DNA of 64,000 bases from Neodothiora populina (lineage: Eukaryota). Each line of letters opens with the position of its first letter. Positions within the stretch are counted from its first letter, which is position 1. A model generated the notes under the pieces. It saw only the letters and a list, made by a program, of their open reading frames with translations, made no database searches and had not been told where the DNA came from. This document shows, one piece after another, positions 20,839-35,100 of the stretch. A program made the position numbers and the translations under genes. The stretch spans positions 372,001 to 436,000 of the forward strand of contig NW_027191408.1 in assembly GCF_041146345.1 (NCBI RefSeq), read 5' to 3'.

Positions 20839-21828
20839 ATGGCTTCCACGAATATAATCAACGTCTTTTTCAGCACATTCCAAGGTCTCGGTCTGCCTCG
20901 CACGCTATGCATTCCCACCCCAGACACCTCCCGCATCAGCGACCTGCTGGCCGACCTCGACTCTCGCATCTCGACCACCGCATCTCTACCCTTCAGCATC
21001 ACCACCCCATCAAGGCGATCACTAGACCGCGACTCACAAGAGACCATCGCTTCTCTGCTCGACAGAAGCCGCATCGACAAACTACACAATGACGCCGCTA
21101 GCCCCATCCTCAACCTGCGTCTGTTGGTCCCCACCCTGGGAGGCAAAGGCGGTTTCGGATCACAACTACGCGCTGCCGGAGGGCGCATGAGCTCGCGCAA
21201 GAACCGCCGCAATCCCGAGCAGCAGAACGCATCGAACCGTAACCTCGACGGCCGCAGACTGCGCACCATCACCGAAGCCAAGAACCTGGCTGCTTACTTG
21301 GCTATGAAGCCCGACATGGACAAGAAGGAGCGAGAGGAGCGACGAAAGAGGTGGGAGGCTGTCGTCGAAGCCGCGGACAGGAAAGAAGAAGAGGTCAAGA
21401 GGGGTAAAGGACCTAATGTCAGGCTCGACGGACAGTGGGTTGAGCAGAAGGAGGAACTCGAGGGGAAGACTAGAGATGCCGTCCTCGCTGCTATGAAAGC
21501 TGGACTGATCGCCAACGAAGCCATCATCGCAAGTGAGCGCACTGGCAGTGAGAGTTCCGCTAGCGATCAGGACGACGGCGCAGACAGCGATGATCCCATG
21601 GACCCTGCAGCCAGTGGAGCTTCTTCGTCTGCTGCTAGCGGTGCAGATGAGAAAGCAGCCACGTCCAGCAAGCCCTCGATTCCTTCTGCTGCCCCTAGGA
21701 CTTTCTTCGGATGGGACGAAGACGACGAGGATATGAGCGACGAGGACGAGGGGGATGAAGATGAAGTCCAAGAACAACCTGCACCCTTGGTGACCGCGTA
21801 TGGAGGAAAAGGCAAGGCTCCCGCGTAG
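20839..21828 (+). CDS. SDE2: Sde2 homologue (ubiquitin-fold-activated splicing/silencing factor)
   Basis: UBL-like N-terminus ending LGG|KGGFGSQLRAAGGRMSS, then NRNLDGRRLRT; acidic C-terminus; intronless 329-aa ORF. Confidence 0.9.
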   Translation: MASTNIINVFFSTFQGLGLPRTLCIPTPDTSRISDLLADLDSRISTTASLPFSITTPSRRSLDRDSQETIASLLDRSRIDKLHNDAASPILNLRLLVPTLGGKGGFGSQLRAAGGRMSSRKNRRNPEQQNASNRNLDGRRLRTITEAKNLAAYLAMKPDMDKKEREERRKRWEAVVEAADRKEEEVKRGKGPNVRLDGQWVEQKEELEGKTRDAVLAAMKAGLIANEAIIASERTGSESSASDQDDGADSDDPMDPAASGASSSAASGADEKAATSSKPSIPSAAPRTFFGWDEDDEDMSDEDEGDEDEVQEQPAPLVTAYGGKGKAPA

Positions 21829-22430: not shown

Positions 22431-23635
22431 CTACACAGCAGCCGCTACCAAAGCACAAACGACGACCGTCCATGCCACTGAGCCAACAGACTTGAAAACA
22501 CGATCAGAAGCTGCGCCGGCGACCGGGGCAGCCGTCGTGCTCGCCGCGGCTGGAGCGGACGACGAAGAAAAGGACGAAGACGATTGAGTAGAAGATGCGC
22601 TTGTGGACGACGGCGTTGTTGATTCTGTGGAGCTTGGAGAAGACTCCGTCGCAGTCGTGGAAGAAGGCGCCGAAGACGTCGAAGTCGTCAGTGTGGTCAG
22701 CGTGCTGGTTGCGGAAGCCGTGCTCTCGCTGCTGGTAGTGCTCGATGGTGGCGGAGGCGCAGTGGAACTCTCTGTCGTGCTTGCAACTTCCGACGACGAA
22801 GAAGAAGAAGAAGAAGTCGTGGAGGCAGCCAGCGAGGATGCAACCGATGCCGAGGATGCAGATGCTGCTGAGCTGACTTGGCTTGCCACGGACGAAGCCA
22901 TTGAGCTTAGCGCCGAGGATCCGCTCGAGATGGGGAACGGGATGATGATCGGGATCGAGCTGCTGCTTGTGAGGCTGCTCAGACTACTGCTGACGGGTAG
23001 TGAAGTCGCCGTCGTCAGAGTTGCCGTTGCAGTGGTTGTTGTGAGCAGCGACGAAGGAGACGACAGCGTGGCTGGGCCGACCGGTGAGGGCGCCACATTG
23101 CTAGACGGTAGTAGAGAAGACCAGAGGCTGGATACAACAGATGCTGGGTACGTCGTCTGATATGACGAGGGGAATGTTGCGAGCGCACTCGACAGGACCG
23201 TCACTGCATTTGTCGTGGGGATACTGCTCGCTGCTGGGCAATCGCTGACGGACGGGCCGCATGATGTGATGGTCGCCGTTATTGTGCTCTCCACTGTGAT
23301 TGCAGGGACAATGACAGGGATCCCTGTAGTTGAGGTGGCCTCTCCTAGATAAGAACGTCAGCACATCATATAGAGACATGTATAGAGATACCGATGTACC
23401 AGAAGTGGCTGAAGCCGTCACCGTAGACACTGAATTGGAAAGTGTGTAGCCAACTGGGATGATGATGGAGACGGACACGCCTTTGGGGGTTGTTAGGATA
23501 TGTTGACAAGATAGAAACAGAGATTAGACACCTACCATTTAGAACCGCTGGGACAGTCGTCGCACTCGAGTTGCTCTGACACCTTGAAAGGAGAGGCAAG
23601 CTCGCCAAGACGAAGCCGAGCCTAGAAGAGACCAT
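22431..23635 (-). CDS. Ser/Thr-rich GPI-anchored cell-wall glycoprotein. Introns 23535-23481 and 23399-23345
   Basis: Signal peptide MVSSRLGFVLASLPLLSRC, motif TITSCGPSVSDCP, long S/T tract, C-terminal AGAA followed by hydrophobic VAWTVVVCALVAAAV. Confidence 0.8.
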
Positions 23636-24854: not shown

Positions 24855-25876
24855 TTATTCCTTCTTTGCCCGCTTGAAGAACGAATCCATAGTTTTCTGT
24901 TTCTCATCGTACTGTGCGCGTCCGATGCCGCCACGGGTACGTTTGAACCCTTGCAGATGCTGTTTGCCATCGACCATGAGTATGGTGGTCAGACAACCAG
25001 CGAGGCAGGGCTGCCTTGAGATGTTACCGCTGCTGCTGCCGCCGTCATCATTCCGATTCGGCGGTGTGGATGGCTCATGACGGCCCGCGCTATGGCCAGT
25101 AACAGCCGTAGCCTCTGACGATGGATCATCGTTGTCAGGCGTCAAGCGCGCGGGAGCAGGCTGGATAGGCTTCAGCAAGAGCGACAACTCAAGATAACCG
25201 GTATTACTCCATCCACCCAAGTGCTCCAAGACCAGTGGACTTCTGGCGGCGCTAACCTCCGGAACAACAGTGAGACTCCTGCGAGGTAAGCGTAGAAGAA
25301 GCCTACGCCACAGATTTGACAGCAGAATGCCATGCGACACTACGACCACCACAAGTTCTTCTGGGGGACGTTCGCCAGACTCGAGTAACGGAATGAGATG
25401 TGTATCGAGGAAATCATCACTGCGCTTCGCCATCGAGGCTTTCGACTCGACATCGACGAAACCAGGCTCACTCTTGTGTGCGTCATGGTGAGCTTCTCTT
25501 CCAGTCTTGCTGGGAGAATCGCGTTGGCGAGCATAGAAGGGCTTGCCTTCGTAATAACCAAAGTCCTGCTCAACCAACTGCTCGACTTTGGTGATCGAAA
25601 CAGCCTGCGTCTTCTGGGCTGTTGAGACAGCTTCAGCAGTCTTATGTGCCCTCTGAAGAGGAGAGGCAAAGACGTGAGTCAGAGGAAGTCGATTATCAGC
25701 GAACCAGGCGCCAAGGCGTCGAGCTTGCTGTATGCCATGGTTGGTGAGAGCAGAATCTCTGCTTCCGGCGCTGGCTTGATATTAGTAGGTTTCAAGGCAT
25801 TTGCGAGCGATAGAACACACTATATGCCAGCTACATTATCAACTGTCTCGCCATGTCGGACCAGAAAGAGACGCAT
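24855..25876 (-). CDS. Histidine phosphatase (phosphoglycerate-mutase family, TIGAR-like). Intron 25820-25771
   Basis: MRLFLVRHGETVDNVAGIY|AGSRDSALTNHG, FASPLQRA, EQDFGYYEG, VVSHG and WSNTG motifs. Confidence 0.9.
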
Positions 25877-27304
25877 CGAGCATCTCCGCTGGTATCAGAA
25901 GCAGGAGCATGCCGTTTCCAAGATGTTGTGATGTAGAACGAAGTAGAAGCTATTGACCCTGCAGGATCTGTTCAGCGAAATGACAGCACATTGAACGTAC
26001 CGAACTTCAACCGGCGTTCTTAATAGCATCACATACTTGACAGGCCGTGCTCCTCCATTATTCGGCGATATGGTAACCCTGTGCTAGTTATCGTCATTGA
26101 TACAACAGCTATGCTTAGCTGGCGAGGCTGGCTACCTATATATATAAATGTGTAATTCGACTCAAGCAAGACACCTCACATTGTATGTGTATGCGATTAC
26201 AAGTGCTACCCTGTTTCTTAGACCGCTGCCAACCGTAGTATACAGTACTACTCCGGCCATTCTCTAACAGGCAAAAGGTCGACCGTGCCTTTCAATTTCT
26301 ACAAATAAGGTATCTACTTTTCATGTTGAACTGTATCAAATGTAGGACAAGTGGAAGCATAAATCGAGACAGTGCTCCATTAGACCGAATTCGACAATAA
26401 CTGAATGTTGCAATATAGTTTGCTTGCACTTCTCCTACCCTCGCCTATTTTCTGATATCGCCCTTTACCTCTTGATGAACTCTGAGACTAATGACAGCAT
26501 GAGCTGCGCGGTAGTCGCGAAAGTCATTGAATCAACATGACAGCGCTCAGCGCTGAGTGCTGAGTGCTGAGTGCTGCATACAGTGTCAAGACCGTATAAA
26601 TCGGGCATTACATCTTGCCATACCATAAGAAAAACATTTGTCGATGCATCTCACAGGTCGAACCTGCACCAATGACGGCAATGGTCAAAGTTGTCGGTCA
26701 GCGGCACGTTTGGAAAAAGCAGCTGCATTAGTGCGATAAGCAGTGCAGCTTGAACCATGCAGGAAAACTACCTACTGTAAGGTGAGATAGACAATGGGAG
26801 GCTGCATGAGAGTCGAAGTAGACAGATATCAACCCCCCTTTGCGGCTGCTACAGGTTCACTGTCTAGCTTTATATGCTTTCCATTGGATCCTTTGATTAT
26901 CAACAAGAGCATACAAAACTCAGGCGCCATGAATGTCAGCGAGCCCAGCAAAGGTTGACCAACGAACTGGAGAATTAACTGCTAAAGCTTGACTTACAGT
27001 AGCTCCCCTCAAACAATCGAGAAAGTTACACAAAATGTTGCTGTACCAGGTGTACCCCAATCCACTTATCGGCCCAGACTTTAGAGTAAACCCACGTTGC
27101 GGCCTTATCGGGGCGGTAGCGTATAAGCAAGGAAATTCGGAGTCTGGGGCAAGCCATCAGGTTACTGAGGGGCAATCCTCCTTCACAGCTTCTGTCCTCA
27201 ACCCTCCTGAATTACATATCACTCTCGCTGTATCCATCATAAAGCTGTAACCTTCAGAACTTGATCATCGGACAGGCGGTCCATAACGGCGCATCAGAAC
27301 AAAG

Positions 27305-29836
27305 ATGCAGGGAGTAGTTGCAGGTGGCAGAGCTCGTTCCAACACCCTCGGCCCAATCGAAGACACATTTGTGGTAAGTTGATTTTTGTGTTCGTGCTTG
27401 CTATTTCTCCCATTCATCCATGCACTACGGCTCTATTGTTCCTGGCAAGTGTGAGCTCTACCACTCGACATCTCGTCAATCGAACGTGAGGTTGATACAA
27501 TACCCGAGTTCGCCCGCGTGTCATGGCGTCAGGGCCGAGGCGAACACGCGCTTCTTACATACATTACGCATCCATCGTCGGACCACGCCCCATATTTGCA
27601 CGTTTACATATTGTACGGAGTACTTGTAAGGTGATCTTGCCCTTTCACTTGTCGCTTCGGCATCCCTGGCCGGGACTTGTGCATACGGAGCGAGGATCTG
27701 GGGCCCCGAGAATCGTCCCCAAGTTCGGTCAATGCCTTAATATACCTATTTTATATCATGCCACCACTGGACTGGGATGGTCAGAAGACACAGGCAAAAT
27801 ATTTTGGAAACGCTTCTCGAACAACTACAAATACGTCTCGTATTGCATCAAAGCGGGGCGATCATCGACCCCGCGACTTCTAAGTCCATCCGGAACTGAG
27901 CAATTCCGGAAAGTCGCGAAGGCGGTGATGCTCAAGTACACCTTCCATATGGGAGTTCTCTGACCTATCAATTGCACACCCCTGCCTTAGTACCTGTTGG
28001 AGTCGGCCATACCACTCTCCACCACAAAGAACATTGTCGGTACCCATCGGACACCTGGACTCATCCCGCTAGCTACCACACCTCGACCCTCAATTGAGGA
28101 AATAATACCCTTGCTCAGCTTGCAGAAAGGCCTCTCTGTTCCATTCAGAGATTCCTGAAAACATATTGGTTCTCGAGGAACACTTTGAACACGTTTAGTT
28201 CGAGCTTCCCCCATCCTGGGCAGAGACAGTCACAACACACCTCGCCAATTCACCCTCTCTCTCCGGCAAGATGAACGGAGACTCGCACCCAGCGCCGGAA
28301 CAATATATGCCTCACATGCGAAAACTTTCGTTATCTGATTTTATGCGTCCTAGCCGCAGAACTAACGGAGTTGGCATCCAGGCTGATGAAACGAGGATAT
28401 GCGTTGTCATGGTGGGCCTACCCGCCAGGGGTAAAAGCTTAATAGCTTCGAAGAGTAAGGCACTACCCTTTTTCAACTTCGTGGCAGCATGGTCTAACAC
28501 GAAACTCTCTCCCCAGTCGTACGTTACTTAGGGTGGCTCAGCGTTACCGCGAAGACGTTCAATGTCGGACAGTACCGCCGCTTAGGCACGCCCAACCCGC
28601 CTGCCGAATTCTTCGATGTTCACAATGAAGAGGGGGAAAAGCTTCGTAGGGCGGCTGCCGAGGCAGCTGTCGCAGACATGATCCAATGGTTCTCCAACAA
28701 CGAAGGGTTGGTGGCCGTCCTGGATGCTACGAATAGTACAAAAGCACGAAGGAGATGGATCCAGGAACGCTGCGACGCCGCCGGCATTGAGACTCTATTT
28801 GTCGAAAGCAAATGTGATGACGAGGATCTGATCATGTCTAACATTAAGGAGGTTAAGACAACATCTCCGGACTACAAAGGGCAGGATCCAGAAATTGCAG
28901 CTCAGGACTTTCGTGATCGCATCCGCAATTATGAGAAGGTGTATCAGACGCTTGATGAAGACGAGCAGGATCTCACTTACTGCAAGCTCATCGACGTTGG
29001 TGGCCAGGTCATCATCAATAAGCTAAAGGACTATCTCCAATCTCGGGTCGTGTATTACCTCATGAATCTTCACATCAAGCCTCGATGCATCTGGCTGTCA
29101 CGTGTAAGTCCAAAAGCCTTCTGATGCCCTCTTGTAATCACTGACAGTGCCAAAGCACGGCGAATCCGAGTTCAATCTTGGTGGCCAGATCGGCGGTGAT
29201 GCCAACATCTCGGAACGTGGCGAGTTATATGCTCGAAAACTGCCTGAGCTTGTCAGACAGTCAACTGGCGGACAACAGCTTACAGTATGGACTTCAACCC
29301 TCAAGCGGACTATTCAGACGGCACGATTCCTACCCTATGAGAAATTATCCTGGAAAGCACTGGACGAGCTGGACTCGGGTGTTTGTGATGGTCTGACATA
29401 TGCCGAGATTGAAGAACGCTACCCTGAGGATTTCAAGAGCCGCGATGCAGACAAATACAATTACCGTTATCTCGGTGGCGAGAGTTATCGTGATGTTGTA
29501 ATCCGGCTCGAACCCATCATCATGGAACTGGAACGAAGCGAGAACATCCTCATTGTCACCCATCAAGCCGTACTCAGATGCATCTACGCCTACTTTATGG
29601 GTAGCTCGCAGGAGCAAAGTCCATGGATGGAGGTGCCCCTACACACACTCATCAAACTTACCCCAAGAGCTTACGGCACTGTTGAAGAGAGATGGAAGGC
29701 AAACATCCCTGCTGTCAGTACTTGGAGAGGCAAAGGTAGCCAGGCAAAGCATCAAGACCCGGTCGAGCATGGTCCAGGAGGTGAGGGCTCCGACGGGCCT
29801 GCGGAGTCTGAGGCAAAGGACACTCCGGCAAAGTAA
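27305..29836 (+). CDS. FBP26: 6-phosphofructo-2-kinase/fructose-2,6-bisphosphatase (Fbp26-like). Proximal start 28271 or distal first exon 27305-27373; introns 28455-28516 and 29104-29155
   Basis: ICVVMVGLPARGKS P-loop, FNVGQYRR, DATN, WLSR|HGES, LDELDSG, GGESYRDV and THQAVLR. The 5' exon structure is uncertain. Confidence 0.9.
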
Positions 29837-32180: not shown

Positions 32181-35100
32181 ATGGGGAGGATTAAGAAGAT
32201 CGCCACCGAGCGGCATGAGGCGTCTGTTGTATGTTCAAGATGATCTCTATCAAATAGTCTGATGGATGTAGCAGAAGCTGACATTATTCCAGTCCCCTTA
32301 CGTGAGCGACTTCATTAAGCAGACAGTCGATCTACCATTACACAAGCTCTCACAGCACATCACCACATTTCCCATCAACTGGCCCTTTCCCCGTGGAGAC
32401 CTCTACCACTGGATCCCGACCTTGAACCGGTTTGACCATGTTCTCGAACTCTTTGTCAAGCAATATGCGCTCGACCAAGGTTCCCAGACCCAGCCATTCG
32501 ATGTGAGGTTACTCAGCATGGGCGATAGCGAAGCGGAACCTTCTCCAACGCCCATCACCAAGGAAGAGTTGACTGAAGGTGGTTTTTCAGAGGAAGGCGA
32601 TCGGGAGTTGATCGAAACCATTTTACAATTCACGCGCATTCTCCTGGAGAGATGTGGCAACAGAAGCCTGTACGCCAGCAGCAGCCATCTGAACCATCTG
32701 CTCAACACTGTCTCCCTCACTCTTCTGAAGGCTACCTTGCGAGTGACTCTGAGGCTGGCTCAGCGCTACCACACCTCTCGCATGCGCATGGCGTCGCCAC
32801 ACACCCTGAGTGCTCTGCTGGCTGGTCACTACAGCATCAACCTCGACAAAATGCAAAAGCTCGCGAGTCCATTCCCTAAGAAGGTTTCCACTACAGCAGC
32901 TATCCTCGGCACACCAGTGAAGAGCAAGGGCAAAGTTCCTGATGATGTGGACTCTGCTGCAAATACTGCCGACATTGCAGGCATGGTCAAGGCCAGCGAC
33001 ATTCCTCTGCATTTCAAGCAGGATCTCTCGAGCGTCCAATTGTCATATTACGAACAAGTGCCTGCATCTGCGACCGATGCCAAGTCAACCGCGACTGCTG
33101 CTGCTGCTGCTGCCGCGCCCGTGGCTGCCCCACTGGAGCCTGTAACTCCTACACCGGCTCGTCGCAGATCTAACCTGGGACCTGGCTCTGCTTCTAGACA
33201 TAGTGGTGGTGACGATACGGCTGACACACCGTCCAAATCAGTCGAGACTCCGGATGGTCATATCGCTTCTGAAGGGCATGCACCTACAGGACCTAGGTTG
33301 TTTGAACTGCAGCCCTCTGAGCTAGCCAACGAACCTTCCTGGAAAGTCGTCGCAGACCACAAGGCAGATGTACCCGACGCGTATCTGTACGATTTATTGC
33401 ATAGGGTCCGCATCGCATCCGCCTTCAACTCGTCCAAGCAAGCTGTCAATGACTTGGTTGCTGTCAGGATCCTGGCGATCGCGAACGTGGCCTACGTGTA
33501 CAGCGAAACTCAATTCTCCCACAAGATTGCCCAGCCCGATTCTGAGGAGCCTCGGCAGACACAGTTAGCGCAGCAGTTGACGGAGATGCTTCAGCCTCCA
33601 AGCGATGGACAGCAAGGAATATCGAAAGAAATGATCGTTATTGTCATCATGGCTCTGGAGGCCCTTACCAAGACAAAGTCCAAAAGCACGGAGGTGACTC
33701 AGGCTCTGAACATCAGTGTCAGCCACGGTGTACTTTTCTATATACTTCGTAAGGTCCAGGCCACCCTGGCCGAAGACAATCTACCGTTCGAGGAGTATGA
33801 TTGGTGCAAAGACATGCTCGACCTCGTGCAATCACTGGCACAGCCCTCTTCACACCAACAGCGCAATGCAGATGCCATGGTCTCTGCTGGTTTCATTGGC
33901 ATACTTGTGGACATCTTGAGTCTTCGCACGAAGCCTGCCCAGGTCTATTTCCCTGCTGCTTTGCATCTCATCGATACATTTATCCACAACGGTGTCAGAG
34001 ATGCTTTCACGGCCTTGGTGAACGCAAAAGGTCTGGACGTTCTTGCCGATTTGACCTCGGAAGAGGTACAGCATTCCCTTGAGGCTGTGGAACGTGGAGA
34101 ACGTTTTCCTGCCGAATACAGGGCACAAAGCACGAATTACCAGATTCCCTTCATCGACCAGTTGATCCTGAGACAACTGCTAAAATTTATTGCGCACATG
34201 TATGCTCACAGCATTGGTACGAATGATCGCCTTCTCAGAAATCTCATCGATTCGCCACAATTATTGGGAGCTTTAAAGACTGTCATCAGCAATGCCGATC
34301 TCTTTGGCTCCAATGTCTGGAGCGGAGCGATCAACATCCTAAGCAGCTTCATACACAATGAACCAACGAGTTACCAGGTCATTGCCGAAGCTGGCTTGAG
34401 CAAGATGTTCCTGGAGGCCATCACCCAAAAGCCGATCACGGTAAACGACCTCACCACTGAGCAAGCAGCTACATCCGGGGACGACTCAGAGGAGGTCGTG
34501 GCCCCCGTCCCGAATCAGTCCGCTACTACTCCAGTGGACACAGGCAACAGAGCCCCAGCGCAAGGTATCTTACCTGTCGGTGAAACCATGCGTGATATTC
34601 CCCCTGCTTTCGGTGCTATTTGTCTAAACGAAAATGGCTTCCGCATGTTCCAGGCCTCCGACGCGCTCGAAAAGTTCTTAGAGATATTCGAAAGCCCCAA
34701 TCACGTCAAAGCAATGGAGGAAGAGAGCGACGTCGCAGGATACATAGGTCAATCATTCAACGAGCTTGTCCGGCATCACGATCAGCTCAGAGAGCGCATT
34801 GCGATCGCGACGCTCAGTATGGTCAAGAAGGTGGTCAAGATCTGCGAGGAGCGCGCCAAGTACAAGGGCGTCGGGGCCAAGCTCTGGGTTGAGTCTGACT
34901 CTAATTCAGGACCAATTGTTGCAGGCGGTCGCAAGACTCTGGAAGGCATCCACTTGAAGGAGTTGGAACAGTTCGAGCAAGCAGGAGTCAGTGACTTTCA
35001 CACTGCTGTTGACCGCAAAGTAAACGACTGGCTTCCAGACGCTACCGACCCAAATCCGTCGGTCGCAGAAAAGGACCTTGAGAGTGATGATCTAATCAAC

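Follow-up and report, generated by a model that had tools for sequence, protein, structure and literature searches.

In the window (the whole 64,000-nucleotide stretch of Neodothiora populina DNA analysed here), a gene for a two-domain PFK-2/FBPase-2 is preceded by a short upstream coding exon and by a second ATG in frame with the kinase domain. How is the upstream exon joined to the enzyme, and does the gene specify one N-terminus or two? The original prediction offered a [D1,2] stwintron, in which removal of an internal intron rebuilds the donor of an outer one, or alternative N-termini. We put at roughly 0.8 the probability that the locus combines two alternative first exons, both conserved, with a 3' splice site of dual use and yields two versions of the enzyme. 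This reading is carried by the reading frame, the consensus splice sites, the locking of codons at the junction, the conserved distal exon and both forms in records of relatives.

Specifically, a transcript from a distal promoter would join the 23-codon exon, by removal of intron 27374-28381, to position 28382 and encode a 468-residue protein. A promoter inside the intron would allow translation from ATG 28271, with the branch point and the acceptor read as codons, giving a 483-residue protein. The two first exons would be mutually exclusive and both catalytic domains shared, so that the N-terminal tail would be the only difference. Judged from sequence comparison, the arrangement appears common to many filamentous fungi.

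Table 1. Coordinates of features at the PFK-2/FBPase-2 locus, in window positions.
Feature	Position	Strand	Remarks
HGATAR (GATA-factor) sites at 26897, 27066 and 27105	26897..27110	.	408, 239 and 200 nt upstream of distal ATG; putative distal promoter
Distal first coding exon	27305..27373	+	ATG 27305; 23 codons; phase 0 end; holds RARSNT-L (RxRxxT-hydrophobic)
Canonical GT-AG intron of distal form	27374..28381	+	1,008 nt; donor GTAAGT 27374-79; splicing inferred from sequence
CCG-N7-CCG (AcuK/AcuM-type) matches at 27504 and 28038	27504..28050	.	Inside intron; weak lead, proximal promoter
Internal branch point, TAG, TACCT	27959..27995	+	TCTGAC 27959-64, TAG 27988-90; judged chance arrangement
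Proximal N-terminal coding stretch	28271..28381	+	37 codons from ATG 28271; RKLS, TNGxGxQ; intronic in distal form
Outer branch point and TAG	28334..28353	+	TCTGAT 28334-39, TAG 28351-53; out of frame; not conserved
Dual-use branch point ACTAAC	28361..28366	+	Thr-Asn codons of proximal form; full RYTRAY
Dual-use acceptor CAG	28379..28381	+	Gln codon of proximal form; 12 nt after ACTAAC
First shared coding exon part	28382..28454	+	Start of 6PF2K; P-loop GLPARGKS
Shared intron	28455..28516	+	GTAAGG...CAG
Shared exon, kinase-fold domain	28517..29103	+
Shared intron	29104..29155	+	GTAAGT...AAG; splits RHG phosphatase motif after Arg
Last exon, histidine-phosphatase (FBPase-2) domain and stop	29156..29836	+

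The gene and its two N-termini

The translation of 28271-28454, 28517-29103 and 29156-29836 (+) is identical to record P0001; the public record for the gene gives the proximal form only. In this proximal protein, Pfam places 6PF2K from residue 37, which is the splice junction, and His_Phos_1 from residue 253. The combination of 6PF2K and a histidine phosphatase domain with RHG assigns the gene to the Fbp26 type of PFK-2/FBPase-2, and solved PFKFB structures match the protein at an E value of about 1e-131. Two loci elsewhere in the genome hold kinase-domain paralogues. The RHG motif is intact, as it is, together with both domains, in yeast Fbp26 and in Myceliophthora PFK2-A, for which the accessible text of PMC9721465 reports FBPase-2 activity only. 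Many related records are named fructose-2,6-bisphosphatase, and by analogy the fungal enzyme may act only as a phosphatase. Record P0003 is without HGESE at the RHG-splitting intron, whose acceptor is AAG, probably through a mis-called acceptor.

Upstream of the gene lie an SDE2-domain gene (21001-21825, +), a Ser/Thr-rich ORF with no Pfam match (22434-23357, -) and a divergent neighbour (24858-25781, -), itself another histidine-phosphatase-superfamily gene (PF00300). A DUF908/DUF913 gene begins at 32272 (+).

Both first coding exons are in frame with the shared exon, as in genes with alternative first exons. The joined distal form reads EDTFV followed by ADETR and continues through 468 residues with no stop, and the intron that it removes encloses the proximal 5' region and the proximal N-terminal codons. 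Alternative N-termini are thus well supported, but through a junction, 27373^28382, that the original prediction did not list. Because both tails fall below pLDDT 50 in predicted models (P0001 residues 1-37 and P0245 residues 1-25, with low values up to the junction), the first-exon swap is predicted to alter a flexible tail. The 5' region is single copy in the genome and is not a repeated "sister" element.

A 3' splice site within coding sequence

TAG 28353 had been taken as the best acceptor before the kinase domain, which overlooked ACTAAC and CAG just downstream and in frame. Five branch-point-like hexamers occur in 27400-28400, and ACTAAC with its CAG is the sole branch point/acceptor pair within 27540-28400 to match the frame of the phase-0 donor. 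The splice consensus given in the accessible part of PMC12403724 is GURWGY, RYURAY and YAG. Counting against this junction, the earlier branch point/AG pairs at 27990, 28353 and 28359 must be skipped in the 1-kb intron.

The junction was compared across orthologue DNA from a pattern scan, which gave at least 115 stretches. With the window's own locus, 62 passed a fungal-orthologue filter; removal of six near-duplicates left 56 loci, and removal of two without the N..Q pattern left 54 for codon counts. Among the matches listed, 47 of 55 non-self loci have a branch point with YAG at the junction, as against 11 of 381 downstream control Gln codons. Again among the matches listed, 39 of 40 loci use ACT for the Thr before Asn (downstream control, 98/607; Thr of EDT, 9/45) and 49 of 52 use CAG for the junction Gln (controls, 238/398 and 25/46), while two loci have Met in its place. 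The Gly (51/53) and Val (46/53) between the two signals are kept as residues among the matches listed, yet all four codons are used for each. Since Gly and Val are kept with free codons while ACT and CAG are locked, selection acts on these bases at two levels, splicing and protein. At this junction, splice signals drive the conservation of residues (Thr, Asn and Gln), which makes it a clear example of its kind.

L022 has TAG as its acceptor in this register, which would be a stop codon in a translated form; this acceptor and the intron-like ends of L066, L113 and L011 suggest lineages with the distal form only. Four loci of one lineage (L016, L035, L093 and L108) have GTC AAT and CAA, the branch point and the acceptor having been lost together. 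L016 has no distal exon, and L071 and L077 have ATG where CAG is expected.

In the stwintron alternative, 27374-27990 would be excised first and the rebuilt donor GTACCT would be spliced to TAG 28353. The motifs invoked for it are all in place (Table 1), the two-step product is in frame, and its intermediate meets a TGA stop at 28156. In the [D1,2] stwintrons of Pezizomycotina, too, a G stands before the canonical donor (here G27373 before GTAAGT) and a T follows an internal AG, and the accessible text of PMC9024468 has one mention of a GUACCU donor, for an internal intron of a pseudogenised gene. However, the rebuilt donor, spacing, size and conservation all depart from that family. Under the published search model (accessible part of PMC9024468), GTACCT is outside the 24 canonical donor hexamers (GTRWGY, G fixed at +5), and the spacer from the internal DYTRAY to its HAG is 23 nt where the model has 4-20 nt. 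The constituents measure 617 and 364 nt, in total 981 nt, whereas the model expects 25-80 and 25-200 nt from donor to branch point and the stwintrons of one species span 114-313 nt in the same source. In addition, a single canonical splice, 27373^28382, restores the frame. The model finds no match in the 64-kb window, and with distances relaxed to 700/30/500/30 it matches elsewhere in the window and not at 27373.

The geometry is also at chance level. Of 142 real 900-nt segments of the 64 kb, 57 hold a branch point-HAG-T site as lax as that at 27990; an equally lax internal site arises in 938 of 2000 shuffled versions of the intron, and the strict form is absent from the intron. Orthologues had been expected to conserve a G before the GT donor and a T after the AG. 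Among the matches listed, the G is found in 6 of 21 orthologues, and the branch point and HAG of the outer register in 1 of 53 loci, namely the window locus itself. The RTNG stretch that the stwintron product requires is kept in none of the 22 distal-signature protein records. Young species-specific stwintrons exist, and non-conservation alone would not exclude one. A subphylum-wide stwintron is documented (accessible part of PMC6616335); the present candidate is not subphylum-wide. The arrangement in the window lies outside the [D1,2] family, and we regard a stwintron here as highly improbable. More generally, stwintron calls from short windows arise by chance.

A single promoter could also supply the proximal protein, either by retention of the 1-kb intron or, as the original prediction had it, by splicing of the distal exon to AAG 28270 or through an 11-nt microexon. 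The AAG (28268-70) stands directly before the in-frame ATG, both of these products are in frame, and spliced proximal contigs carry long leaders of 342-564 nt. Nevertheless, no DYTRAY branch point lies upstream of AAG 28270, and the microexon donor GTCGGC is not among the 24 donors, which leaves both routes unsupported. A retained transcript would hold eight upstream ATGs before 28271, and none of the protein records compared fuses the two N-termini. We consider a single promoter quite unlikely; we infer splicing of the distal form in the source organism and two promoters.

The distal exon and both forms among relatives

The distal exon is conserved upstream of the orthologous genes. Of 30 loci with at least 1,300 nt of upstream sequence, 17 have a canonical donor after a YSMSN-like ending when read in phase 0 and none has one in phase 1 or 2, among the matches listed; the signature was written after part of the data had been seen, so that independent control comes from the phase contrast alone. 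After a profile search, an upstream phase-0 exon is assigned in 21 of 29 non-self loci among the matches listed (four of the 21 accepted by eye, two with low scores of 3.8 and 1.6 bits) and not called in the other 8. The orthologous exons lie 739-1,525 nt upstream (median 952), and where the splice signals are intact the exon is called in 20 of 24 loci, where they are not, in 1 of 5 (Fisher p 0.013, an inflated value given the common descent of the loci), again among the matches listed. L066 and L067 have phase-0 donors ending in AS, as in records P0299 and P0329, which was noticed after the count. L012 (952 and 650 nt upstream of the junction) and L067 (906 and 643 nt) have two phase-0 donors each, with similar upstream peptides, possibly marking a third first exon in these loci.

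The window exon scores 9.9 bits against a profile from 17 protein records alone, which places it at the top of seven local candidates (runner-up, 2.2 bits) and is equalled in 1 of 2000 shuffles. GVVAGG-like or RARANT/RGRSNT words are common to it and records P0245, P0227, P0275 and P0276. Among the matches listed, its nearest exons are those of L058 (RKRANT) and L050 (RERSNT). A search with P0245 residues 1-45 gave no distal form from the source organism's order among the best 120 of 239 matches, so these two loci are the nearest support.

The distal exon may be real in relatives and vestigial or silent here, with the proximal form alone made in this species. The proximal-only public record fits such a loss, as does the diverged 3' end of the exon, which fails the signature (the exon scores only 9.9 bits), and lineages with lost splice signals do exist (L016, L071 and L077). 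Nevertheless, the locus retains intact, all at once, its ATG context, open frame, GTAAGT, phase and distance as well as the branch point, CAG, RxRxxT and GATA sites, and L058 has the same diverged exon type. We therefore think a silent exon unlikely.

Protein records contain both forms. The VMVGLPARGK motif is found in 277 records, 22 of which carry the distal signature, and in 22 of 22 the signature joins 8 residues before VMVG, which is the predicted point. The distal records are named in several classes, including lichen fungi, Leotiomycetes, Orbiliomycetes and Pleosporales. For 8 of 9 distal-type records, the longest contig leaves fewer than 739 spare nt, too short for the intron, and these records therefore derive from intron-free sequence, presumably transcripts. 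Spliced contigs are found in 5 of 56 loci among the matches listed, all of the proximal form, and no spliced distal junction occurs among the pattern-matched loci listed. Both forms are thus on record in the family, among relatives of the source organism, as intron-free sequence (5 proximal contigs and 8 of 9 distal records). Because all five spliced contigs are proximal, the distal form may be rarer or condition-bound.

In two cases both forms are on record within one species, with cores identical over 434 of 434 and 436 of 436 residues; 6 of 11 such pairs were compared, and the pairs are database annotations, not proof of co-expression. Budding-yeast records have a distal-type N-terminus, with a YS-hydrophobic-S-N ending before VE, which suggests from sequence that the distal N-terminus is ancestral. 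Naganishia is a basidiomycete, and a record under that name (P0289, P0290) has the length and N-terminus of Meyerozyma records, possibly through mislabelling or contamination.

Putative regulation and relation to known systems

The RxRxxT site noted earlier in the distal exon is conserved beyond chance. Among the matches listed, RxRxxS/T is present in 11 of 22 distal exons, 8 of them with a hydrophobic residue at +1, and missing from the other 11; shuffles average 0.55, and 0 of 5000 reach 11. RxRxxS/T with hydrophobic +1 is a Ypk1/SGK-type motif (accessible part of PMC7124472), and the window exon carries this AGC kinase substrate motif. Phosphorylation by such a kinase would tune the breakdown of fructose-2,6-bisphosphate. 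The PKA-type RKLS site attributed to the proximal form is present in that stretch, but of 103 proximal-type records no more than 14 have it, most of them close relatives.

Ten promoter motifs were screened in two regions, and two leads were taken further with control regions and dinucleotide shuffles. Over the 500 nt that precede the distal ATG, HGATAR occurs 77 times as against 27 in shuffles, in 21 of 22 loci (0 of 200 shuffles), and GATAAG 27 times as against 4.6 expected in shuffles, in 19 of 22 loci, among the matches listed. Positions cluster, with 31 of 77 HGATAR sites at 201-300 nt upstream and a close pair in 14 of 22 loci among the matches listed. HGATAR is not enriched at 500-1,000 nt upstream, in the intron or 3' of the gene. 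The divergent neighbour has no match upstream in the other loci and therefore does not explain the GATA sites. The distal promoter would be under the control of a GATA factor, probably one for nitrogen but conceivably one of those that act in iron, light or development. AreA/NIT2 favours paired HGATAR sites within 30 bp (accessible part of PMC4246892); the pair in the window is 39 nt apart. A short run of CTGAGTG repeats lies at 26545-26577, upstream of the distal exon.

The second lead is weaker. CCG-N7-CCG, a motif taken from PMC5295593, occurs 29 times in the intron as against 10 expected, but CCG-N4-CCG is likewise enriched, 35 as against 10, so the enrichment is not specific (among the matches listed). 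Sites are scattered and partly belong to one element of related Pleosporales-like loci, and the accessible part of PMC5295593 does not show the gene as an AOD2/AOD5 target. CreA, STRE, CCAAT, PacC, CRE, HSE and SRE-type motifs, screened as consensus strings, are not enriched in either region under a crude doublet shuffle, and a FacB-type motif is marginal under the same shuffle (2 of 100). An inverted SYGGRG pair of CreA type, GCGGGG...CCCCGC (27853/27869), flanks a short near-palindrome at 27853-27874 in the intron; it was not counted because the CreA class is not enriched across loci. Four loci (L028, L031, L048 and L076) have TCCGGCA(A/T)TCGGCGG in common in the intron, about 680-740 nt upstream of the proximal ATG; with its overlapping CGG spacings it is a candidate Zn2Cys6 site.

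Mammalian PFKFB1 offers a parallel. Its L, M and F mRNAs arise from separate promoters and are distinct in exon 1 alone, and Ser32, the PKA site, lies in one first exon and is missing from another (accessible part of PMC4178209). The enzyme family, the alternative first exons and the kinase site supplied by one of them are alike. By contrast, the fungal alternative N-terminus overlaps the other form's 3' splice site, its codons serving as branch point and acceptor, and the fungal motif is RxRxxT, with no PKA site there; the two arrangements are probably convergent. In Aspergillus oryzae, enoA and fbaA have alternative starts from two promoters used by nutrient state, one with an AcuK/AcuM site (accessible part of PMC9604717). 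These too are fungal glycolysis/gluconeogenesis genes with two starts; unlike in enoA, the codons of one form are the splice signals of the other here.

The accessible text of PMC9721465 has no match for "splic" or "intron" and does not describe two forms. Nor did we find such a description in the accessible literature, which holds few subscription journals, on stwintrons, fungal bisphosphatase isoforms, fbp26 and dual coding/branch points. Single forms are already in public annotations; a paired two-form description was not found.

A broader account is possible, though we hold it only tentatively. The distal N-terminus would be ancestral, and an early filamentous ascomycete would have made the 3' end of the intron coding behind a new internal promoter, TNGxGVQ being a translated branch point and acceptor. 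The outcome would be a nutrient switch independent of that of PFKFB1, in which one form, under GATA (nitrogen) control, has an AGC-kinase site, the other, from the internal promoter, has none, and the two set fructose-2,6-bisphosphate and hence glycolytic flux.

How glycolysis and gluconeogenesis are balanced is set by fructose-2,6-bisphosphate, whose control in filamentous fungi the accessible part of PMC9721465 describes as largely enigmatic. Records mostly give one form per gene, and knockouts, assays and phosphoproteomes may therefore have missed the second form. The arrangement yields exact junctions and silent mutations that would remove one form only, and it offers a candidate route by which nitrogen and TOR-type signalling could reach glycolysis.
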